Source: Bdellovibrionota bacterium (GTDB lineage: Bacteria > Bdellovibrionota_C > UBA2361 > CALJRW01). From it: a stretch of 16,987 nt of DNA. The stretch covers positions 1 through 16,987 of the forward strand of contig JBGSMD010000014.1 of assembly GCA_041740355.1 (NCBI GenBank), in the 5' to 3' direction. A program made the translations under genes and the position numbers. Below, one piece after another: positions 344-16,964 of this stretch. Each line of letters begins with the position of its first letter. Position 1 is the first letter of the stretch. The notes beneath the pieces are model-generated. The model worked only from the letters and a program-made list of their open reading frames with translations, ran no database searches and had not been told where the DNA came from.

Positions 344-892
344 ATGAATAATTTATCACTTAAAACAAAAGAATTTAATTCAAACCCTAGTATTTATGTA
401 GCAAGTCTAAGTCATTACAATAATGGTGAACTTGTCGGTCGCTGGTTTGATTTAGTAGATTATCAAGATGGCGAACACTTATTAAAATCAATTAGTAGCT
501 ATATTTACGGACTCACTTGCTATGGTGAACAGTGCGAAGAATGGGCAATTCATGACTTTGATAACTTGCCTTTTAGAATCGATGAATACGCATCAACTGA
601 AACATTTAATAAACTGTATCAAGCAGTCGAATTATCTAAAACTTATGATATGGAGGCAATTACCGCCTTTGTCGCTTGCTTTAGTCAAGATGAATTAGAA
701 GGATTTGAAGATTGCTATCAAGGTAATTATGAAAGTGAATTAGATTTTACACATGAATACATTGAGAATAATTATGATTTAGATAAAATGATGGGGTCAC
801 TTTCCTGTTACTTTGATTATGATAGTTACTCAAATGATTTATTTATTAATTCATTTTCTTATCATAATGGTTACGTCTTTAGCAGGTATTAG
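344..892 (+). CDS. ardA: Antirestriction protein ArdA (DNA-mimic inhibitor of type I R-M)
   Basis: IYVASLSHYNNGELVGRW, EEWAIHDFDNLP, YQGNYESELDF, YFDYDSYSNDL motifs; very acidic; AAGGA RBS at 331-335. Confidence 0.93.
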   Translation: MNNLSLKTKEFNSNPSIYVASLSHYNNGELVGRWFDLVDYQDGEHLLKSISSYIYGLTCYGEQCEEWAIHDFDNLPFRIDEYASTETFNKLYQAVELSKTYDMEAITAFVACFSQDELEGFEDCYQGNYESELDFTHEYIENNYDLDKMMGSLSCYFDYDSYSNDLFINSFSYHNGYVFSRY

Positions 893-1440
893 TATCACTT
901 GCTAAGTTCTAAAAAATTAAGTCTCTCTTGCATGATTATTCTTAGGACCAAATCGAGTTTTTGAACTTGATGATATCTTTTACAACAATAGTCTATGCAG
1001 AAACAACGAACCTTGGAGTTTCTTTCCTTATCTAGCAATCCCACCTTGCTCATCTTATACTTCAACCGTATCCCTAGTAATTAACTCAGTTTTAATTTCC
1101 ATCGTATTTTAGATTTGCTTATTTGCAATGAAGATAAGACAATATCAGAAAAGATAGTAAGTTTCTCAACAATTCACGAAGGTGCGGACTTTATGATTTC
1201 TTATCTTATTGTCAGTGAGGTGTTTTAAGATCGTCAACTGCTGCAACACACAAACCTTTAACTTAAACTTGCAGAGTCCTGCTATGTAGTTCTCTGGGCA
1301 GACTTTATAGATGGTCGAGTGCCCCATAAAGCTAACGGAAGTTATATAGGCGAAGGTTTATAGCAGTTACAAGGGAGTTGCCTGCAAAGCTAAAAGACAC
1401 TAAAAATGTGACACGAATAATATAAAAAAAGAAAAGAAGT

Positions 1441-3834
1441 ATGATAAATAAAGTTGAAAATCTTGTTTCAATTGGAAAATTTCGAGACTATCGAGCACGT
1501 GGACAAGTCAATTTTAAAAAATTGACCTTAATATATGGCGAAAATGGGAGCGGAAAAACAACTTTGACTTCAGTGTTTCGCTCATTAACAGCCAATAATC
1601 CCGAAATCATTAGAAGTAGAATTTCCACAAATCATACGACAGCACAAGCTGCACAAATTACGGAATTCGCATCGCCAAATAATGTATTTCATACATTTGG
1701 TGTCAATGGTTGGTCAAATCTATTTCCAGAAATAGAAATATTTGACATTCATTTCGTCAATGAAAACATTTATTCAGGCTTTGACTTTAGTGATGAGCAC
1801 AGAAGACAATTGCATCAATTTGTAATCGGTGCTCAAGGAATTGCTATTCAAAATCAAATTGAACAAAATAAAATTGACAAAACAAATTCTAGACAAATTC
1901 AAACCAATATTGAGACGCAATTAATCCAACTAGTTGGTAGCAATCTTACACAGGATTTAATCACCTCCTTTCTTGATATTCCAGCAGCAAATGCAAATAA
2001 TATAGACCAATTAATTACAACTGCTGAGACAGTCTTGGCGAGTGCAAATGCAAGTGAAATAATACAAACGCTTCAACCACTTTCAAATCTTACGAGAATT
2101 TCGACCAGTATAGATTTTGTCTCTCTTATTTTCGACCTTCAAGCGACTTCTCAAACAATTCAAAACAAAGTATTAGAAATATTATTTGCTGAGCATTGCC
2201 AAGACTTATTGGCCAACAATATTGTCGGACCTGAAAACTGGTTACAAACTGGTTTCGCATATGTCGAAAATAAACAAGCATCAAATGAGCCTAATATTCC
2301 GTGTCCATTTTGCAAACAGAGTATTGATATGAGCTCTGATATTCTAAATGCGTATGCAAGTAAATTTAATGATGAATTTAATGAATTAGTACAAAGACTT
2401 CAAGCACACTTACAATTACTTCAAAAATTCAATATAGAAGCAACTCTCCAAGCAATAAACAATATCAATCAAACTAATACATCAAGAATCGCATCTTGGG
2501 CAACACATTTATCTAATACTGTTCAAGCACCAGTATTTAATATTATTGCTAACGAAGCTAATTTTAGAAAAGAACTTCAAGATTTAATTGTTTCTGTTCA
2601 ACGAAAAATACAAAATCCAACAGTAGCCGTGGCTACCGCCACCGCTACTGTTTTTCAAACTTCTGAGCAAGCCATAAATGCAAATATTGATGTGTATAAT
2701 CAAAATGTAGTTACTTACAATACTGTAATAACAACATTCCGTTCAAACATTCAAACTGTCACAACAGCACAACTTGAAGTAGATAGATTGAAAAGGATAA
2801 AAAATAGATTCGAAACACAAATTGAAACACTCTGCAATCAGCTTATCAATGAAAGGCAAAGATTAAGAGGGTTAGAAACTGCTTATACTCAGTTATCCCA
2901 ACAGCAACAAGCGGCAGCAACAACTTTCTTCAATACTTATCAAACTCAAATAAACCATTATTTGGAAAATGTTTTTAGAACGCCATTCCGTATTGATAAT
3001 GTTGTCCACATTGCACCACGAGGTAGGGCTCTTCAGAGTCAAATCAGTTACAAACTGACAATTGATGGCAATGATATTTCATTTACACAGAAGCAACCAC
3101 TTAATGCAAAAGAATGTTTAAGTGAAGGTGATAAAAGTACAATTGCACTTGCTTTCTTTTTATCAAAACTTGATATTGACCCAAATAAGCGAAACAAGGT
3201 TTTAATTTTTGATGACCCATTATCTAGTTTAGATACAAAGAGACGAACATATACAATTGGAATTATTAAATCTTTGTTTCAGCTATTAAAACAAGTTGTT
3301 GTTCTAAGTCATGATGAATATTTTCTTCACGAAGTTAGTAAGGATATTGCTGCATCAGAGAAATGCACCCTTCGCATTGCAGAAAATTTTACAGCAGGAG
3401 CCTCATATATTGAAGTTTGTGATTTAGAGGAACTGGTTAAAATTGACTACTTCAAAAATCTAGAAAGATTGGAAAAGTTTAGAAGCATTCCCGATATTAG
3501 CTTGAAAGATTCTGTTTTAGGTTGGCTTAGAAATGTTTTAGAAGCTCATCTTCGATTTAAGTTTTATAGAGAAATTCGTTCAATGACTGGCCAACCAACT
3601 TTTGGCAAACTAATTTCATTTTTGAATAGACTTCCAGTCACTTTTAGAGATAATGCTAATAGAAATGACATAATATCAAAACTCAATTTGATTAATGGTG
3701 TTTCTTGGAAATCACATCACGGAGACCCTACCCCTGACTATATAACATTAGGTATGAATCCAAATACCATTACGGCTTCAGAATTGAACAACTTAATTCA
3801 AGACACATTCGATTTGATTGAAAAGCGTTTATGA
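1441..3834 (+). CDS. RloC-like (AAA_13) ABC ATPase with coiled coil, zinc hook and C-terminal HEPN-like nuclease domain; putative anticodon nuclease
   Basis: Walker A GENGSGKT, zinc hook CPFC, signature LSEGDK, Walker B/D-loop IFDDPLSSLD, H-switch LSHD, C-terminal LRNVLEAHLRFKF...INGVSWKSHHG. Confidence 0.85.
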   Translation: MINKVENLVSIGKFRDYRARGQVNFKKLTLIYGENGSGKTTLTSVFRSLTANNPEIIRSRISTNHTTAQAAQITEFASPNNVFHTFGVNGWSNLFPEIEIFDIHFVNENIYSGFDFSDEHRRQLHQFVIGAQGIAIQNQIEQNKIDKTNSRQIQTNIETQLIQLVGSNLTQDLITSFLDIPAANANNIDQLITTAETVLASANASEIIQTLQPLSNLTRISTSIDFVSLIFDLQATSQTIQNKVLEILFAEHCQDLLANNIVGPENWLQTGFAYVENKQASNEPNIPCPFCKQSIDMSSDILNAYASKFNDEFNELVQRLQAHLQLLQKFNIEATLQAINNINQTNTSRIASWATHLSNTVQAPVFNIIANEANFRKELQDLIVSVQRKIQNPTVAVATATATVFQTSEQAINANIDVYNQNVVTYNTVITTFRSNIQTVTTAQLEVDRLKRIKNRFETQIETLCNQLINERQRLRGLETAYTQLSQQQQAAATTFFNTYQTQINHYLENVFRTPFRIDNVVHIAPRGRALQSQISYKLTIDGNDISFTQKQPLNAKECLSEGDKSTIALAFFLSKLDIDPNKRNKVLIFDDPLSSLDTKRRTYTIGIIKSLFQLLKQVVVLSHDEYFLHEVSKDIAASEKCTLRIAENFTAGASYIEVCDLEELVKIDYFKNLERLEKFRSIPDISLKDSVLGWLRNVLEAHLRFKFYREIRSMTGQPTFGKLISFLNRLPVTFRDNANRNDIISKLNLINGVSWKSHHGDPTPDYITLGMNPNTITASELNNLIQDTFDLIEKRL

Positions 3835-4055
3835 CAAATAACATAAATATTGTTAATAGCTGTTCAAGTTGCAAGCATATCCGCTGGATGATTGCTATCG
3901 GTTATGGACTAAGATGTGGTAATCCAAAGAATCAGGATAAGATTTTTAGAGAAGAGGAAAGAGATCCGCATCGTGAAAAAATGGGACCATTAGTACCATC
4001 AAGAGACTTTGCTTGTGAACACTTTCAAGAAAAAGAAGTTAAAGAGCTGGATTAA
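3831..4055 (+). CDS. Small Cys-rich, probably metal-binding hypothetical protein
   Basis: CSSCKH...RCGNPKN...ACEHF; ATGA overlap with the upstream stop codon. Confidence 0.6.
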   Translation: MTNNINIVNSCSSCKHIRWMIAIGYGLRCGNPKNQDKIFREEERDPHREKMGPLVPSRDFACEHFQEKEVKELD

Positions 4056-4220
4056 TTTTCTATTTTTTTTAATGATTGCCTCTGATATTAATTTAGAAAC
4101 TTTGCTTGGTAAATTTACCATAGTTAAATATTACATTTGTATAAGCGGACATAATTACCACCTCTTCCAATTTTGTACCGTTAGTACTAATTTTAAAGAT
4201 AATTAATAAAACAAGAACAT

Positions 4221-5486
4221 ATGAACGAAATTATTTGCCCAAATTGTAAAAAAGCTTTTAAAGTTGATGAAAAGGGATTCGCGGATATTCTTAAGCAAGT
4301 TCGTGATCAACAATTTGAAGAAGAATTACAAAATCGATTAAATCTTGCAGAGAAAGAAAAAGTGAGTGCTGTAAAACTAGCAGAAGCAGAGGTGAGAAAT
4401 GCTTTGCAAGCAGAATTAGGAAAGAAGGATAAAGAACTAACGACACTCAAAGCTCAAACCGACTTAGAGCTATCTGAAAAGCTAAATAAGAAAGAAGCAG
4501 AAATAGCACAACTAAAATCTAAAATTGAGAATGCGGAAGTTGCCAAAAAACTTGCTGTTAATGAGGCACTTCAAAAAGTGGAGAAAGAGCGAGATAATTT
4601 GGCTCATGAGTTAAATACCAAGGAATTAGAAAAACAAAATCTAGAAAGCTCTTTAAAGGAAAAATATTCAACAGAAATCCAAAATAGAGATGCAATAATC
4701 AAATATAAAGATGAGGAGATTATTCGTGTCAAAGATATGAAGCTAAAGCTTTCCACCAAAATGCTAGGGGAAACTCTTGAACAACATTGTGAGACCGAAT
4801 TTAATAAACTTCGCGCCACAGCTTTTCAAAAAGCTTATTTTGAAAAGGATAATGATTCCAAGTCAGGGAGTAAAGGGGATTTTATTTATAGGGAGATGGA
4901 CGAGGCAGGGAATGAAATTATCTCCATAATGTTTGAAATGAAGAACGAAGGGGATGAAACAGCAACAAAAAAGAAGAATGAAGATTTTCTAAAGGAACTA
5001 GACAAGGATCGTAATGAGAAGAAATGTGAATATGCGGTTCTTGTTTCTTTATTAGAAATTGAAAATGAACTTTACAATACTGGAATTGTTGATATGTCAC
5101 ACAAGTACAGCAAAATGTATATTGTTCGACCTCAATTTTTTATTCCTATTATTACCATCCTCCGTAATGCTGCTATGAACTCCTTGCAGTATAAATCGGA
5201 ACTTGCTTTGGTGAGAAGTCAAAATATTGACATTACAAATTTTGAAGAAAAAATGAACAAGTTTAAAGATGGGTTTGCTAGAAATTATGACTTAGCAAGC
5301 CGAAAATTTAAAGATGCAATAGACGGAATAGACAAAACAATCAAAGAACTGCAGAAGACTAAAGATGCTTTATTAGCGTCTGAAAATAATCTTCGACTTG
5401 CAAATGAAAAGACAGAAGACTTAACAATTAAGAAACTAACTCACGGCAATCCGACGATGAAAGCAAAATTCAATGAACTTGAATAG
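4221..5486 (+). CDS. DUF2130 family protein (N-terminal CxxC, long coiled coil, C-terminal putative PD-(D/E)XK-like domain)
   Basis: [17 protein letters not shown] start; [44 protein letters not shown] motifs. Confidence 0.88.
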
Positions 5487-5589
5487 TTTCTTTATTGGCT
5501 CAAATGAGACTTTGGATGTCATGGGGAACGATACAGATAATATAGACTGTAATTATCCTAAGAATTAAAAACTGCTAGAATATTGGGGT

Positions 5590-6039
5590 ATGCAGAAAAT
5601 TGAAAAAATTCTTGTAATTGAAGATCAGAAAGGCCCGATTGGTGCAATTCAGTATGCACTTTCTCAGAGCTTACCACCTTTGAATCTAGATCCTGAGGTT
5701 AGGTATGTTACTAACTATACTGATGCAGAAAAAGAAATTGCGTCAGAGGAAAGATTTGACTTAATTCTGCTTGACCATAGGTTGCCAAGAGTTGATGTTG
5801 GAGATCTTGAAGATAGAGATATGAGAGCTTTCTCAGATAAGTTAGCAGATATTGGATACAACTTGATCCCAACTATTAGGACCCAGCAACCTCAGAGCAT
5901 AATTATTGGCACTTCTTCCATGAGAGATGAAATTGAGGGTCTAGAACAAATGCCTGATGAAAATATTGTTAAGAGTGATATGTACTTCCCTGAAAAAGAA
6001 TTTTCACCGTTGCTAAGAAGACTGGTCACAGGAGACTAA
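5590..6039 (+). CDS. Stand-alone response regulator receiver (REC) domain protein
   Basis: KILVIED acidic pocket, FDLILLDHRLP phospho-acceptor Asp, IIIGTSS, conserved Lys (IVKS); no output domain. Confidence 0.8.
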   Translation: MQKIEKILVIEDQKGPIGAIQYALSQSLPPLNLDPEVRYVTNYTDAEKEIASEERFDLILLDHRLPRVDVGDLEDRDMRAFSDKLADIGYNLIPTIRTQQPQSIIIGTSSMRDEIEGLEQMPDENIVKSDMYFPEKEFSPLLRRLVTGD

Positions 6040-6062: not shown

Positions 6063-7961
6063 TCACACACCAAAAAAATTCTTGATCAATGAAAAAAGAA
6101 CACCATCTTGTTTCTTTGGTTTTTCTTGTTGTGGGGACTGAAAGGGTTGCGTTGAACTCATAGTGTTAGTTTTAAATGAATCTTTTGGTTTTGAGGGGAA
6201 TATTGTCTCCCTTTGTTCATACAAAGAGGAGTATTTTCTCATCCTGTAGGAGCTTCCATTAAATAAAAACTTTTCTACATTTTCGGAGTAGGTGAGTTCT
6301 TTTTTCGCTCTGGTTAGAGCAACATATAAAATTCTTAGTTCCTCTTTGCTAATTGGTTGTTCTTCACCTTCTTTATCTTTTCTAACTGTTACATAGTCAT
6401 CAGCTAATCGAACACTATTCCACTCACGTCCTTTTACCTTGTGGGTTGTGCCGATAATGGTCTTTGCTGAGTTTTCATCCTGTTCACATGATTTTAGAGC
6501 CGTAAAAAGAGCTCCTAACCCAAGTTTACTCACTAAATTTACCAGTGTTAGTAGAGAGGCCCCATCTTCTGTCTTGCTGAAATCAATGACTTCATCCCAA
6601 TTGGAAAATCCAAATAGTTCAGGAGCATCAGTAGGAGTATTATTCTGAAGATCTCTAACTCCATAGAGGAGGTTTAGTAGCTCTCTGGTGCCACCTACCA
6701 CAGCAACTGATTTGTTACTATTTAGTTGCCCTAAAAGCTCTTCTATTAGTTTGAAATTTGTTCTACACAGAATAGCGTCAGCATTAAAACTACCGATAGT
6801 GCTATTGATACGCTGGTTTCCTTGAATCTTTTGCTTCTCTCCAAGTTTATTTAGAACTAATTGCGCAGTTTCAGCAATTGGCTGACCAAAACGAAAGCTT
6901 TGGGTAAGCAAAGAGGAATTGACCGTTTCAATTTTTTCCATTGCATTTACAGCACCTCGCCATTCGTAAATCTGCTGATGGCGATCCCCAACATAAATGA
7001 TTTGAGAGGACTGCTCGCCGAGAACACCCAATACTACAGGATTAGAATCTTGAGCTTCATCTAAAAGTATAAAATCAGCAGTTAATGTGGGCTTGGATAG
7101 TGCCCACAGTTTTAAGTATCCATCATGTCCCAAGGGAATTGGAGAGTAGGGATCTTTCATCTGATTCCAGAGAATGTGGGTTTTTTCCAACACAGCACAT
7201 TTTAATTGATTGGAATGAACTTCTGAAAGCATACCAATTGGCCCACTAGGACGTGGAATATGGTGTATAACAATACTTTCCTCAGCGCTATGTAAAAACT
7301 TATTTAGTGTTCTAAGAACAAGACCAGCAAATATTTTGGCTGGAATCTTTTGTGAATCAAAATAAAGAGGTTCAAGATTTAAATGCTGATTAACCGCGTT
7401 TACATTTAGAGAATTAGTTAGCTTAGCAGTATCACCCGAAAAGGAACGAGAAATATTACGATAAGCAAGGCTATGGGTAGTTCTACATTCTATCCTATTG
7501 GGAAATTTCGCTGAGGCATCTTGGGCAATAGATTTATTGAATGCCAGGTAAAGCCCAGAGCGATTTGTAGATTTAGCCATTTCTACTAAGGTTGAAGTTT
7601 TTCCAGCTCCGGCAAAAGCATTAACTTTTAGACTCTGATTCGTGCTGAAGAATTGGATTGCTGCATTTTGCTCATCAGTTAGTAAAAAACCATTGGTTTT
7701 AGGAACAGTTTTTTCGTAGATTAACTTGGAAGCACTAGTCCCATTTGTTTGGCTCTTATCATTAGAATTATTTGTTATTGCAGGGTGTCTACCTGAGATT
7801 GCTTCTAGAACCTTTTTCTCAAGATTTTTTGCTGCAGCAGTTTTACGAAAACTTAATTCATTCTTCAGATCTTCTAGTACTTGGATGTTTGATGTGTTGT
7901 CTGTAAACTCCGCATAGAGTTCATTTATGCCGTATCTAAAGTATTTGCGCGTATTCGCCAT
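6063..7961 (-). CDS. UvrD/REP-like superfamily 1 DNA helicase with N-terminal extension
   Basis: LTDEQ Q-motif, AFAGAGKT, LYLAFNK, ILLDEAQD, VGDRHQQIYEWRGA, LTQSFRFG, TTHKVKGREW, LYVALTRAK; AGGAG RBS upstream. Confidence 0.9.
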   Translation of the reverse strand: MANTRKYFRYGINELYAEFTDNTSNIQVLEDLKNELSFRKTAAAKNLEKKVLEAISGRHPAITNNSNDKSQTNGTSASKLIYEKTVPKTNGFLLTDEQNAAIQFFSTNQSLKVNAFAGAGKTSTLVEMAKSTNRSGLYLAFNKSIAQDASAKFPNRIECRTTHSLAYRNISRSFSGDTAKLTNSLNVNAVNQHLNLEPLYFDSQKIPAKIFAGLVLRTLNKFLHSAEESIVIHHIPRPSGPIGMLSEVHSNQLKCAVLEKTHILWNQMKDPYSPIPLGHDGYLKLWALSKPTLTADFILLDEAQDSNPVVLGVLGEQSSQIIYVGDRHQQIYEWRGAVNAMEKIETVNSSLLTQSFRFGQPIAETAQLVLNKLGEKQKIQGNQRINSTIGSFNADAILCRTNFKLIEELLGQLNSNKSVAVVGGTRELLNLLYGVRDLQNNTPTDAPELFGFSNWDEVIDFSKTEDGASLLTLVNLVSKLGLGALFTALKSCEQDENSAKTIIGTTHKVKGREWNSVRLADDYVTVRKDKEGEEQPISKEELRILYVALTRAKKELTYSENVEKFLFNGSSYRMRKYSSLYEQRETIFPSKPKDSFKTNTMSSTQPFQSPQQEKPKKQDGVLFSLIKNFFGV

Positions 7962-9464: not shown

Positions 9465-9815
9465 ATGAAGAAATTAAAAGTTAAGAAAGAGGCTTTAGGA
9501 GGAGACGTAATAATCTTTAGATTAGAAGATGAAATAAGTCGGGCACTAGCTCAGTATTCAGTGACTCAAGGTCTCAGTCCTAATCAAACAGCAAGGAAAA
9601 TTCTTGGTGATTTCTTTCATGGAAACGATAATTTTATAAGCCTAAAATGTGATATTGAAGAGCTTGATACCAAGCTAAAAGTTATTGGGTTAGATATCGC
9701 TTTCTCCGTCAAAAAACTTCTTGAAATTGGAGGAGTAAGGGTAGGGGAATCAGATAATTGGGTTAGCGAAAATGTACGAAGTCTTATCTGGAATACTGAT
9801 AAGGAGGCTAAGTAA
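9465..9815 (+). CDS. Ribbon-helix-helix relaxosome accessory protein (functional analog of TrwA/TraY)
   Basis: VIIFRLEDEISRALAQYSVTQGLSPNQTARKIL RHH pattern; sits between oriT and relaxase; TAATG overlap with the relaxase start. Confidence 0.7.
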   Translation: MKKLKVKKEALGGDVIIFRLEDEISRALAQYSVTQGLSPNQTARKILGDFFHGNDNFISLKCDIEELDTKLKVIGLDIAFSVKKLLEIGGVRVGESDNWVSENVRSLIWNTDKEAK

Positions 9816-12247
9816 TGCTATCAATTTCAGGGGCAATTAAGGGAGTCGGACAAGGGGATTACTACCTGTCTCTTGCAAGGGAGGACTACTATTTAGAAGG
9901 CGGTGAGCCGTTAGGTGAATGGTTAGGGGAGGGGGCAAAACTACTTGGTCTAGAGAACCAAGTTAAAGGTGAAGACCTTAGAAATTTAATGGGTGGTAAG
10001 GATAAAGCTGGAAATTCATTAGTCCAAAATGTAGATGATCCTAATAGACGGAGTGCTTTTGACTTAACCTTTTCAGCTGACAAATCAGTCTCAATCATCT
10101 GGGCACTTTCTCCTGAAAAAGAACAGTAAATTATTTAACTTGCCCACAAGGAAGCTGTTAAAAAAACTATTGGTTTCTTAGAAGAGTATGGAGTTAAAAC
10201 TAGAAGAGGAAAGGGAGGAGCCACTAAAGAAAGTGGCAAATTAATAGCGGCCACCTTTCTGCACTCAACTAATAGAAATGGAGAACCACATCTTCATACC
10301 CACTCCTTATTTCTTAACGTGGTAGTAAGAAATGATGGGACAACAGGAACTCTGGAATCGTTAGATTTATTTAAGCTTAAGATGACGGCTGGAGCACTTT
10401 ACCGAGCTGAGCTTAGTAAGATTTTGCATGACAAACTAGGACTTGAATCAGAGCTACTCTCTAATAATTGCTTTAGGTTAAAAGGAATTCCAAGTAAAAT
10501 TATTAACCAATTTTCATCAAGACGATTTGAAATATTAAAAGCATCAAAAGAGCTAGGTTATAAAAGCCAGAAAGCACTTGAAGTCCTTACCTTCGCTACT
10601 AGAAGTAAGAAAGTACTAGTAAAAAGAGAAGAGCTAATAACTGCGTGGAAAGAACTAGCAAAGAATCTTAACTTTGAAGCAAAAGATCTGACTAAGCTAT
10701 TTAAAAAGGGAGTATCCCGGGAAAAGGAGTTTGATTTAGAGATAGTAATTAATGAATCATTAAGATTAATAACAGAGCGGGAAAGCCATTTTAGTTTCTT
10801 TGAACTCGTTAGGCAGATGGCACAATTATCCCAAGGACGCGCCCTTGGTATTGATGAAATATTAGCTACTGCCAAAAATTTTCTAGAAAATGACTTAGGT
10901 ATTATTAAGTTATATCGAGGACAGGAAGTACGCTACACAACAGCGTTAGTCTTAAAAGAAGAGCGAGCACTTATTAAAAAAGTTAGAAGCTTAAGTCAGG
11001 AAATAAGGGAGTTCGTCCCAAGTCATATTAGGCAAAAAATAGGTACAGATTTTAAAACTTTAACTCACGAACAAGAAGTTGCCTTAAATCATATCACTAA
11101 CACTCAAGGCTTAATTAAGGTTGTAAGTGGTATGGCTGGGACGGGGAAAAGCTTTTTATTAAATGCTGTTAGGGAAAGTTTTGAGTTAGCAGGTAAAGAT
11201 GTAATCGGGCTCGCTCCAATGGGTAGAACTGCTAAAGGCCTAGAAGCTAGTTCGTTAATAAAGTCTGAAACTATTGATATGACTCTCCTAAAGATTGAAT
11301 CTAAGCAATTAAATATTACTAAGAACTCAGTACTCATTGTCGATGAAGCTGGGCTTATTGGCACAACGCAGATGAAAAAGTTAGTTGATATTGCATATCA
11401 AGAAAAATGTTTGCTTGTTCTTGTTGGGGATACGCTTCAACTACAACCAATAAGTCGTGGGGCACCGCAAAGAGAAATTATAAAAGAGATTGGCGATACA
11501 AAGCTTAAGAGTATTAGAAGACAAAATGAGGAGAATAGCTGGACTAAAAATGCGATTCTTGATTTTTCTGTTGGAAAATCAAAAAAAGCCCTAATGGAAT
11601 ATATTAAAAGGGGACAAGTATTTATTGGAGAAGATAGATCTGACGCTATAAAATTATTAATTAATTCCTGGGGGGAGCTAAGTGATATTAAAAGAAATAA
11701 AAGCTTAATAATTGCTAGTGAAAAGCAAGATGTCTTTAGCTTAAATATTAAGGCACAGAACTTGCGAGAAAGTCTTGGTGAATTATCAGGGTTAGGTATT
11801 AAGATTAATGATTATTCATTTTATAAAAACGACCGAGTACTTTTTACTCAAAATTCCAAATTTTATGATGTTTCAAATGGTACACTTGGAACTGTTAAGG
11901 CTTTAAATCCGATTACTAAAACACTAACCATTAAGTTAGACCAAGGAAAAAGCGTCAGAGTCTCACTTTCCAAGTATTCTGAATTAGAATTAGGGTACGC
12001 CATTACAACTCACAAATCACAAGGGGAGACCTGCTATAATGACTATATCCTTGCAGGTGGTGGTATGCAGAATCGACACTTAACTTACGTGCAAGCTTCT
12101 CGTGCTAAAAATAAGACGTTCTTTTTTACTGATAAACTTGAAGCTGGGGATAATTTTGTAAACCTAGTAAATGCTATGAGTAAGGATCGGACTAAGGAAA
12201 TGGCAATTTCATATCAAACATCTAAGCCAAGTTTTTCGCGAGCCTAA
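9815..12247 (+). pseudogene. mobF: MOBF (TrwC/TraI-like) relaxase-helicase, ~810 codons, interrupted by in-frame TAA at 10127-29 and 10136-38
   Basis: ORFs 9815-10129 and 10319-12247 are in the same frame; DYY...DYY tyrosines, FDLTFSADKSVS, HLHTH (10289-10303, in the gap between the ORFs), FSSRR, GMAGTGKS, VDEAG, GYAITTHKSQG, YVQASR; AGGAGG RBS. Confidence 0.9.
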
Positions 12248-14647: not shown

Positions 14648-14983
14648 ATGAAAATATTAACACTAATCCTTTCCTGTCTTCTTTTCACACAGTATTTAAA
14701 TGCTGAAACAATTTCTGTAAAATATCGTTCAAGCCCAGTTGAAGTATCTAATGGAAATTTTACGGACTACTCGTTAAAAGAATCTTCGATCATTAAAAGA
14801 TTGCTTTATGATCAGAAAGAAAATTACCTACTAGTAAAATTACATGACGTTTATGATCATTACTGTGGAATTCCTGCTAACTTAGTGGATAATTGGGTAT
14901 CTGCGGAATCCCTTGGTAAATACTACCATGCTAATATTAAGAATAAGCTTGATTGACGAATGGTAGAATTGCCAATTTATTAA
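14648..14983 (+). CDS. Secreted KTSC-domain protein; called ORF stops at TGA 14954-56 but the frame continues to TAA at 14981-83
   Basis: Signal peptide then ETISVKYR; SSIIKRLLYD...YHYC-like (YDHYC)...AESLGKYYHANIK KTSC pattern; read-through gives D*RMVELPIY. Confidence 0.75.
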
Positions 14984-15024
14984 AATATAATTTTTATTCA
15001 TTAAAATCAGAGAAGGGATAATAT

Positions 15025-15534
15025 TTACTTGATAGCTTTTATTTGGGTTTGTTTGATATTTATAAGTTCTTGTTGAGACATTGGCTTCGCGAACTTTGAT
15101 TCATTAAGATTGCTTACTACCTTGATATCTGTAGCCCGATTAAAATGTTTTAGATCTGTTGTCCATATTTCTTGGCATTGAAATTTTTCTGCAATGCCAA
15201 TAGATATACGATCAATAGTTGTACTTCTTCCTTTTAATTTCCCGCTTCTTACAAGCTCTTTACTTACATCTATAATTTCTAACGTGGGGTTAACCATTGT
15301 AAATTTAGAGTTTCTACCAAGAATTAGATTTTGATAAAACTTGTCAATGCTTCGATCCTGAAGTTGATCAATAAATAAAAGTTCCGCAAAAATCAGATTA
15401 GAAGTATAGAAGCAGATTTTCTCTTTTGGATCTTTAATTAAATCATAAAATACATAGCTATTAGGATCTTGTTTGTCTAGGCGAAGAAGATTTAGCAGAA
15501 TACCAGTATCAACAAAAACTGAATTACTCATCAT
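15025..15534 (-). CDS. PIN-domain (VapC-like) ribonuclease
   Basis: VFVDTGIL, TSNLIFAEL, IDRISIGIA, IWTTDLKHF carry the four acidic PIN residues. Confidence 0.85.
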   Translation of the reverse strand: MMSNSVFVDTGILLNLLRLDKQDPNSYVFYDLIKDPKEKICFYTSNLIFAELLFIDQLQDRSIDKFYQNLILGRNSKFTMVNPTLEIIDVSKELVRSGKLKGRSTTIDRISIGIAEKFQCQEIWTTDLKHFNRATDIKVVSNLNESKFAKPMSQQELINIKQTQIKAIK

Positions 15535-16330
15535 TCTGCCCTCTAATAGAATTCAGATACTGATTAGTCGTTAAATTTCCGAGCAAGTTAGGTTTTGTAC
15601 CTAGCATTTTCTCAAAATATTCCAAGTCAAATTCTGGCGATATTCTAAAATCTAAAACTTCCATTGTTGGTTTTTTTGTATTGTCTGTAAATTCCGTATA
15701 CATTCCTTCAACTATTACGAATAAATTTCTATCTTTAAGAGCTTCAATCATTTCATTATAAATCTTTTCGCTTTTGGTGATACAAGTAATTAGATTTTTT
15801 GATATTTCTTCTCTGATCTGAAAAGAGAATTCAGAGGCTTTACTATCTCCAATCCGAATCGCATATACTGAACCAGTTAACTGAAAATGGTGACTCGATT
15901 CTAAATTATCTATTGTGAACTCAAAATCAGCTGGTCGGATCTCACTTGTACCAATTTCACGACCCGAGTCATAAACTGTAAACTTTATTTTATCTTCATT
16001 GGGCACATGAGAAATCAAGTTTTTGAAATTTTGGTTTGTCGTACTTGTGAATTTCTTGCTAACGTCATTAAGCGACTTTAAGTAGGAATTAAGTGCTATA
16101 TTTAAGTTTGGGGTAAATACCTCAGGGTCATAAGATGCTTCAACTGCATACGATACGGATTCATTTTTAAATTCCTGTGCAATTAAATTTTCAGCTGGAA
16201 TTCTCACTCCAAGATCGGTAGTAAAAGATTCCAGAAATTTTTCTAGTGAGCTAGTGATTGCAGATAGCTGACTCAGCTTAACACCTGCTCGACCTTCGTT
16301 AAATCTTATTCTAAGAGTTAATTTTGACAT
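15524..16330 (-). CDS. 268-aa hypothetical protein overlapping the PIN gene; possible OB-fold C-terminal half and antitoxin-like tail
   Basis: 11-nt overlap with the PIN gene; LTGSVYAI...FQIRE...ITC...VIVEG OB-like pattern; tail PNLLGNLTTNQYLNSIRG. Confidence 0.7.
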   Translation of the reverse strand: MSKLTLRIRFNEGRAGVKLSQLSAITSSLEKFLESFTTDLGVRIPAENLIAQEFKNESVSYAVEASYDPEVFTPNLNIALNSYLKSLNDVSKKFTSTTNQNFKNLISHVPNEDKIKFTVYDSGREIGTSEIRPADFEFTIDNLESSHHFQLTGSVYAIRIGDSKASEFSFQIREEISKNLITCITKSEKIYNEMIEALKDRNLFVIVEGMYTEFTDNTKKPTMEVLDFRISPEFDLEYFEKMLGTKPNLLGNLTTNQYLNSIRGQNDE

Positions 16331-16397
16331 TTTATAAATGCTACCATTTTTTTTCGTTACTAACCACTATAAAGAAGATCCCAATTTATAAATAAAA

Positions 16398-16964
16398 CTA
16401 TATAAATAAGTCATCTCTGAAGATACCTCTTAAAAACTCCCAGATAAGGTTAGATGTGTTGGTAATCTCTTGACTCCTTGTTTTAATCTTATCCAATGTA
16501 ATTATACCAGTTTCTACAGTTAACGTTTTTTTATTAAAATCTTCATATTCAAGCCCATCTTCATTACTCCACCCATAATATAGTCCATGAGTTAATGCAT
16601 TTCTTGATTCACGAATTGAGTTAAGATGTTTAATGATTACCTTCAGAGATTTCTTATTAAATCCTAGATCTCTTTTCTCATGATGATATTTAAGTCTATA
16701 TTCTGACATAAGCTTAAATTTATTTATTTTTGCACCGAAACTTAAATCTCTAAAATTAATTGCTCTTATTAGAAAATAGTCCTTTGGATTTTTGAAATGA
16801 CTAGAGCATGAGCCACTTAAATGATTTAAACTCTGCAATAATCTGAAATCTAAAGTTTGAAAACTTATTGAATAAGTTCCATATGCATGAACTATTTTAT
16901 CGTACTCACTAAAATGATCACCTTGAGAAGTTAGAAAAGCATTGTCTTTAGGTTCATCTTTCAT
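16398..16964 (-). CDS. HEPN-like all-helical protein, putative RNase
   Basis: RNALTHG (Rx4H) preceded by LSFGAKI; AGAT/A-rich upstream region lies at the window edge. Confidence 0.65.
   Translation of the reverse strand: MKDEPKDNAFLTSQGDHFSEYDKIVHAYGTYSISFQTLDFRLLQSLNHLSGSCSSHFKNPKDYFLIRAINFRDLSFGAKINKFKLMSEYRLKYHHEKRDLGFNKKSLKVIIKHLNSIRESRNALTHGLYYGWSNEDGLEYEDFNKKTLTVETGIITLDKIKTRSQEITNTSNLIWEFLRGIFRDDLFI

Follow-up and report, generated by a model that had tools for sequence, protein, structure and literature searches.

A 169-residue PIN-domain protein and a 268-residue partner are encoded by overlapping genes on contig JBGSMD010000014.1 of a Bdellovibrionota bacterium (assembly GCA_041740355.1), and the two probably constitute a VapC-like type II toxin–antitoxin cassette with a large OB-fold antitoxin, serving as an addiction or stabilisation module of mobile DNA. 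The stretch of DNA analysed, called the window here, is the whole contig (16,987 nucleotides, approximately 33 % G+C), one of 74 in an assembly of 3.27 Mb. In the mechanism that we propose, the downstream gene would encode a PIN-domain RNase toxin and the upstream gene an antitoxin in three parts, namely an N-terminal α/β domain, an OB fold, and a helical tail. The tail and one face of the OB barrel would bind the PIN protein and cover its acidic active site, and the nuclease would be kept inactive while covered. The cassette would stabilise the mobile DNA that carries it; its relatives are cargo of IS1595-family transposons.

The gene pair and its two proteins

The partner open reading frame (ORF; 15524–16330, minus strand) precedes that of the PIN protein (15025–15534, minus strand), and the two share 11 nt (15524–15534; coding strand ATGATGAGTAA), with the partner stop lying over the PIN start. 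The PIN gene has the motif AGAGGG, which resembles a ribosome-binding site, 4 nt 5′ of its first ATG. The two ORFs run uninterrupted over their full length, with no frameshift or internal stop, and overlapping or abutting PIN starts also occur in related loci. As judged from the sequence, the genes appear to be translationally coupled. An antitoxin-type gene directly upstream and overlapping, in a single operon order, is a feature that the pair shares with VapBC systems, in which the VapB antitoxins are typically under approximately 100 aa. A first-pass annotation of the window had described the PIN gene as coupled to an unusually large upstream partner, and this description holds. The 67-nt spacer upstream of the partner (16331–16397, minus strand) is presumed to be the promoter/operator region; a consensus scan of its minus strand found no sigma-70-like site. 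A 28-nt inverted repeat (14959–14986 and 16321–16348) brackets the pair. Its arms are 71 % complementary with perfect 8-nt ends (AATGGTAG/CTACCATT), and it is probably due to chance, the DNA being AT-rich.

The downstream protein is a PIN-domain protein matched by Pfam PF01850 (E 2.9e-7, 31.6 bits; cut-off 23.6), and we regard it as a putative VapC-like RNase toxin. Aligned with the cognate PINs of related loci, it retains the acidic residues D9, E51, D108, and D127; a PIN domain with conserved acidic active-site residues is a second feature in common with VapBC. It would be toxic to the cell, and the partner would neutralise it and would be labile. A word-index homologue search with the window PIN returned the query alone, no relative of its subfamily was found in 123 genomes of the phylum, and no PADLOC-DB 2.0.0 family matched at E ≤ 1.

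The partner belongs to an undescribed family, for which Pfam, NCBIfam, PADLOC, and PHROGs offer no model. The protein itself gave no match in Pfam or NCBIfam (E ≤ 1), in PADLOC (E ≤ 1), or in PHROGs, searches against sequences in the Protein Data Bank (PDB) returned nothing significant, and the word-index search again returned only the query. The family was defined by searching 1.84 billion representatives exhaustively with HMMER, and it comprises 148 representatives at E ≤ 1e-3, with 61 at E ≤ 1e-10. Most members are 250–290 aa long, and nearly all align end to end at 20–30 % identity. Among 15 billion proteins, none exceeds 30 % identity to the window partner, and both proteins of the pair are the most divergent members seen.

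The alignment of 91 family members, including the window partner, is called A1 here. Of the 26 positions that 80 % or more of the other 90 rows have in common, the window partner retains 20. W49 and G149, kept in 96 % and 94 % of the other members, are missing from it, and the tail residues G244 (99 %) and P247 (86 % of the other rows) are present. None of the 91 members carries a common Pfam family; the Stn1 OB model is matched by one of them. Ten family clusters were inspected and are small, mostly metagenomic, and labelled ‘hypothetical protein’ where named.

The family is rare. Searches of 100 related genomes and of 123 other genomes of the phylum yielded no relative of the partner. In one order it is present in 4 of 401 genomes (two full-length proteins and two partial matches of a sister family described below), and in another phylum in 3 of 401 (one full-length, two partial), both tallies including the centre genome. 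Searches of plasmids by tblastn gave no match with the family members P0001 and P0036 or with a sister-family member as query. Since the family has 148 members and the PIN neighbour is conserved, we dismiss a chance pairing of two ORFs.

Fold of the partner and the predicted complex

The single-sequence AlphaFold model of the partner was poor, with a predicted local distance difference test (pLDDT) value of 54.8, and it was replaced by an AlphaFold2 model based on the 91 rows of A1 (pLDDT 88.9, predicted TM score 0.64). The model resolves three parts. The N-terminal α/β domain comprises residues 1–135 (15926–16330, minus strand), with strands at 2–10, 50–52, 59–67, 115–121, and 124–131 and helices at 19–39, 76–85, and 96–107. 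No sequence family was found for it, and querying the Atlas with these 135 residues produced no usable match. Residues 144–234 (15629–15901, minus strand) are predicted to adopt an SSB/Stn1-like OB fold, a five-stranded Greek-key barrel that can be superposed on the OB domains of SSB, RPA, and Stn1, with no sequence similarity to proteins of these types. Residues 235–268 (15527–15628, minus strand) form the C-terminal tail of two short helices, conserved in the family as the motif FFGxAPxLTGxLSTxEFIxxIR. Both the α/β domain and the OB-like domain had been proposed in the first-pass annotation, and both are seen in the model.

OB folds are Greek-key barrels, and those of the SSB/Stn1 type bind single-stranded nucleic acid. 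By analogy, the partner barrel may do the same; it differs in that it is predicted to touch a protein. The OB and N-terminal domains may bind DNA for autoregulation, or may bind another nucleic acid.

The complex was predicted from a 13-row PIN alignment and the full 91-row partner alignment, together with three controls. The pair scored 0.78, 0.78, and 0.79, against 0.00 in all three controls. In calibration, 116 of 157 solved complexes and 2 of 215 mismatched pairs attained the score mark, counts that hold only roughly here because custom alignments were used. Contacts agree between runs to at least 92 %, and the pLDDT of the partner is at least 75. On the partner, the predicted interface is made up of the tail (231–265) and one face of the OB barrel (145–152, 175–176, 204–215, and 221). 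On the PIN protein, it includes residues 10–11, 14–21, 46–55, 60–85, 105, 107, 126–127, and 130, and is predicted to flank all four acidic residues. Tail residues 231–265 are modelled in contact with PIN residues 10–11, 51, 105, 107, and 126–127. The proposal that the tail lies in the PIN groove thus gains support from the model, which places it on the active-site face, and the two proteins are predicted to bind each other.

Related loci and IS1595-family transposons

Loci related to the pair were recovered with an alignment of six sequences sharing FFGCAP[ND]LT, and the set is therefore biased towards members with this tail motif. The broader partner alignments, A1 and a second one (A2), lacked a conserved stretch usable for the locus search. 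Six loci came from species genomes, twelve from metagenomes, and one (L029) from the genome search; one of them, L008, is a fragment. L009 duplicates L004, and L010 duplicates L011. The named hosts are metagenome-assembled genomes of Desulfarculaceae, Nitrospira, Syntrophobacteraceae, Burkholderiales, and Pseudomonadota.

A PIN-like ORF lies directly downstream in all 18 loci with a family gene, identified by Pfam in six, by alignment in seven, and from the translation in five. T44, S45, E51, and D108 are invariant in the seven PINs confirmed by alignment. The PIN ORF of L012, as called, begins 98 nt downstream, and that of L016 runs off the contig. Decayed copies are also present: in L020 (320–900) the PIN gene is split by a frameshift, and in L008 (3896–4337) the last approximately 38 residues of the partner and the first residues of the PIN protein remain.

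Four further loci (L030–L033), found as partial profile matches, encode a sister family of 260–270-aa proteins. Their last approximately 160 residues, corresponding to the OB fold and the tail, are homologous to the partner family (hhalign probability 98.6, E 8.4e-16), and their N-terminal part has no detectable similarity to it. An overlapping PIN ORF follows in all four. Three of these PINs match the Pfam PIN model with E values from 1.9e-12 to 8.9e-6; the match in L032 (587–1009), where the ORF is shortened to 140 aa, is weak (E 0.003). The pair is thus conserved, as the earlier annotation requires: each of the 18 family loci and each of the four sister-family loci has a PIN gene downstream.

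In several loci, the gene directly upstream, in the same orientation, encodes an IS1595 transposase (Pfam PF12762 together with the zinc-ribbon PF12760). Nine distinct family loci have at least 1 kb of upstream sequence, and the transposase is present in five of these, L003, L004 (the same as L009), L006, L011, and L013, and absent from L005, L007, L015, and L019; all four sister-family loci have it. In four of the loci, terminal inverted repeats enclose the transposase, partner, and PIN genes. The L003 element (2948–5600) measures 2653 bp and has 26-nt inverted repeats (92 % complementary) and an 8-bp direct repeat AAAATAAA. The L004 element (2404–5185) measures 2782 bp, with 25-nt inverted repeats (84 %) and the direct repeat GTAAAACT of 8 bp. 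In the sister family, the L033 element (209–2702) is 2494 bp long, with 33-nt inverted repeats (91 %) and the 8-bp direct repeat AAAAAAAT, and the L030 element (528–3070) is 2543 bp long, with 28-nt inverted repeats that are 100 % complementary and the 8-bp direct repeat CCAATAAA. The cores of the inverted repeats are alike in the four elements (ATTATATACTTGACAAACCCAA and variants), and the 8-bp direct repeats, which are the target duplications, are perfect at all four. The inverted repeats and the perfect direct repeats indicate that the whole three-gene unit has transposed. Beyond the repeats, the neighbouring genes have housekeeping functions (aminotransferase, URO-D, PfkB, and UbiA).

Within the elements the partner gene abuts or overlaps the transposase gene: in L003 the transposase gene ends at 3998 and the partner gene starts at 4001, and in L033 the corresponding positions are 1258 and 1243. 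When L003, which carries a family pair, is compared with L033, which carries a sister pair, identity between the transposases is 83 % and the inverted repeats barely differ, whereas identity is 16 % between the partners and 22 % between the PINs. Such similar transposases with such dissimilar cargo imply that cassettes have been exchanged between closely related elements.

Known systems, alternative explanations, and significance

The pair resembles VapBC in having a PIN toxin with four acidic residues, an upstream overlapping gene, and a C-terminal stretch predicted to lie over the active site. It differs in the partner, which is 268 aa long, combines an OB fold with an N-terminal domain of no known sequence family, and contributes part of the OB barrel to the predicted interface. 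The small VapBC antitoxin with an N-terminal RHH, AbrB, Phd, or HTH domain has no counterpart here, and we therefore file the pair as a variant of the VapBC kind, not as a member.

Several points weigh against a toxin–antitoxin cassette. The partner has none of these classical VapB DNA-binding domains and is approximately three times larger, which leaves autoregulation unexplained. It is also conceivable that an OB fold and a PIN-like nuclease work together as a complex that processes nucleic acids. The complex score may owe something to the solved complexes of PIN proteins with antitoxin tails, through likeness to these rather than binding by the pair itself. The window PIN matches 12 of the 39 positions conserved in 12 cognate PINs, to which it is 14–21 % identical, and it is thus a divergent member. 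The 97 %-complete assembly yielded no IS1595 transposase (PF12762). Upstream of the partner start, 657 nt of contig remain, and an unassembled element could lie beyond its end; with no transposase in the window or the assembly, the cargo argument rests on the relatives. Toxicity, neutralisation, and binding are predictions from sequence and model.

The best-supported reading of the window pair is a divergent, transposase-free copy at the edge of a conjugative-element remnant. The core motif of the IS1595 inverted repeats has two matches in the window at three mismatches, compared with 4.0 expected. The contig carries several mobile-element genes, among them an ArdA antirestriction gene (344–892, plus strand), a TrwC-type relaxase (9815–12247, plus strand), and a TrwB-type coupling protein, as well as a KTSC-domain protein. 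It also encodes an AAA_13 ATPase (1441–3834, plus strand; PADLOC candidate PDC-S06, E 9.4e-68) at 11 kb from the pair, an adjoining DUF2130 protein (4221–5486, plus strand), and a UvrD/GajB-like helicase (6063–7961, minus strand). The relaxase gene has in-frame TAA codons at 10127–10129 and 10136–10138 and otherwise reads in one frame; from its sequence, it is likely to be a pseudogene. Because it is broken by these two stops, the conjugative or mobilisable element may be decaying.

A 188-aa ORF (16398–16964, minus strand) lies 67 nt upstream of the partner and adjoins the contig end. Searches of Pfam, NCBIfam, PADLOC, and PHROGs gave no match to it, no relative was found in 123 genomes of the phylum, and an ORF of this type is not found upstream of the pair in any related locus. 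It contains RNALTH, which we take to fit the R-x4-H motif of HEPN proteins.

The first-pass annotation had framed the pair as a sensor–antitoxin defence system, in which the OB fold, the N-terminal domain, or both would detect phage or invading nucleic acid or protein and release the PIN RNase, so that infection is aborted. Such a system is compatible with the toxin–antitoxin architecture and differs from it in trigger and benefit. We consider it unlikely. The partner is large and multi-domain, has a fold of the nucleic-acid-binding type, and resembles phage proteins when its whole model is compared with predicted viral structures using Foldseek: matches were obtained to protein Q6NE06 of Leptospira phage LE1 (E 4.3e-11, TMq 0.49), to a DUF6575 phage protein (E 4.8e-11, TMq 0.43, over 267 columns), and to a 270-aa myovirus protein (E 7.1e-10). 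Matches to the OB fold only were much weaker (about 1e-4), and the N-terminal domain is thus probably involved in the whole-model matches. The nearest named Atlas cluster also carries DUF6575, with a score of 0.77, which is below the reliable range. DUF6575 is named in the accessible text of Vassallo et al. 2022 (PMC9519451) among the domains of anti-phage systems validated in an E. coli screen; the accessible part of the supplement does not mention it. The window pair shares its mobile element with the PDC-S06 ATPase, the GajB-like helicase, and ArdA, and the cassette turnover seen between L003 and L033 would also suit a role in defence.

The profile comparisons run the other way. DUF6575 (PF20215) is matched by none of the 91 family members (E ≤ 0.01), and hhalign to one DUF6575 protein gave a probability of 6 %, so the kinship is a structural lead, unsupported by sequence profiles. 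The DUF6575 proteins encountered are 370–430 aa long, compared with 268 aa for the partner, and are like it in whole-model fold, with no sequence-level relation or PADLOC match. The domain was found in none of 121 relatives and was matched in 2 of 401 genomes of another class. One DUF6575 context was examined (L034, a 428-aa protein at 1061–2739, plus strand, E 2.1e-17); an overlapping 131-aa ORF precedes it, a convergent DNA methyltransferase-like ORF follows, and there is no PIN neighbour. Among 50,697 phage records, tblastn with the family member P0036 found no match.

The surroundings of the related loci also argue against defence. Besides the lack of PADLOC families for both window proteins, the pairs of L004 and L030 gave no PADLOC match at E ≤ 1e-5. 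Among the 36 neighbour ORFs of 15 related loci, a sample too small for statistics, one had a specific match to a defence candidate (PDC-S36, in L031); three others match generic OmpA/MotB, GlgB, or HTH models only. The flanks of the transposons consist of housekeeping genes. These surroundings do not appear to be defence islands, the recurrent neighbour is the IS1595 transposase, and the defence framing is not supported by them. That the partner senses phage nucleic acid is speculation. The annotation was right that the pair is no recognised system: nothing matches it in PADLOC, Pfam, NCBIfam, PHROGs, or the literature searched. Other genes of conflict systems do lie beside some of the related pairs. 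The PDC-S36/PD-T4-1-like protein of L031 (2224–3003, minus strand) stands beside a sister-family pair, a SocA/Panacea-domain antitoxin-like gene lies near the pair in L010 (1958–2527, minus strand), and a Gp49 and HTH (HigBA-like) pair lies near the related pair in L015 (678–1372, plus strand).

A more doubtful proposal is that the partner is a nucleic-acid-gated switch. Its OB barrel and DUF6575-like N-terminal domain would hold the PIN protein shut and release it on single-stranded DNA or RNA arising from phage infection, from conjugation, or from excision or loss of the transposon. If true, the cassettes that IS1595 elements carry would be exchangeable units of ‘sensor plus RNase’, each both a protection for the host and a safeguard against its own loss, and such a switch would be a transposon-borne immune module of an undescribed type.

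An accessory role in transposition seems improbable. Here the OB fold would hold single-stranded DNA or RNA while the PIN-like nuclease trims transposition or repair intermediates of IS1595-type elements. The PIN-like superfamily includes structure-specific DNA nucleases and SSB/Stn1-type OB folds bind single-stranded nucleic acid; the pair sits inside the transposon, co-oriented with and abutting or overlapping the transposase gene, an arrangement shared by two divergent cassette families. Yet the pair occurs with no transposase in the window and in L005, L007, L015, and L019, and to our knowledge such genes are absent from most IS1595-family elements. The tail is predicted to cover the catalytic residues, a position that suggests inhibition rather than delivery of a substrate, and the decayed copies (L008, L020, and L032) keep the partner end and lose the PIN gene, the usual fate of toxin genes.

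That the window copy is a decaying, non-functional remnant, as the divergence of both proteins, the few conserved PIN positions, the missing W49 and G149, and the degraded host element with its interrupted TrwC might suggest, is also very unlikely, given that both ORFs, the catalytic residues, tail residues G244 and P247, the overlap, and AGAGGG are intact and that the complex model scores high with the window's own sequences.

For a toxin–antitoxin cassette as transposon cargo, the nearest published precedent is the Tn3 family, whose transposons have toxin–antitoxin pairs, PIN toxins included, as passengers (Lima-Mendez et al. 2020, PMC7157771). In the accessible part of that article, the likeness lies in a toxin–antitoxin pair placed beside transposition genes inside a transposon, and the term ‘IS1595’ does not occur. 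The differences are the carrier, here an IS1595-family element of 2.5–2.8 kb with 8-bp target duplications, and the new OB-fold antitoxin. The accessible part of a recent preprint (bioRxiv 10.64898/2026.10.19.760177) describes a two-gene module of a PIN RNase and ‘HelixGK’ next to ParA; compared by description only, this ParA-linked module may be of the same family as our pair. Pfam scans of 11 of the larger window ORFs gave no ParA/MinD-type match. In the literature searched, IS1595 was not connected with a PIN pair in any paper, and there was no description of an OB-fold antitoxin of PIN/VapC, of NetFlax with PIN, or of an insertion-sequence VapC passenger that matches the pair. Within the IS1595 family itself, ISNwi1-type elements reportedly carry passenger genes. 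They share with the elements found here a DDE_Tnp_IS1595 and zinc-ribbon transposase and the enclosure of extra genes by terminal inverted repeats and 8-bp target duplications; the window copy differs from them in having no transposase.

If the pair is indeed a toxin–antitoxin cassette, the partner would represent a new antitoxin architecture for PIN/VapC toxins, combining a new domain, an OB fold, and a tail, and the OB fold raises the question of whether an antitoxin can read nucleic acid. Small IS1595-family insertion sequences would carry toxin–antitoxin cassettes as integral cargo and could swap them, which would extend the precedent of the Tn3-family transposons to simple insertion sequences. 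An element of approximately 2.5 kb with perfect inverted repeats would offer a compact system in which to study whether such cassettes stabilise transposons or their host replicons.

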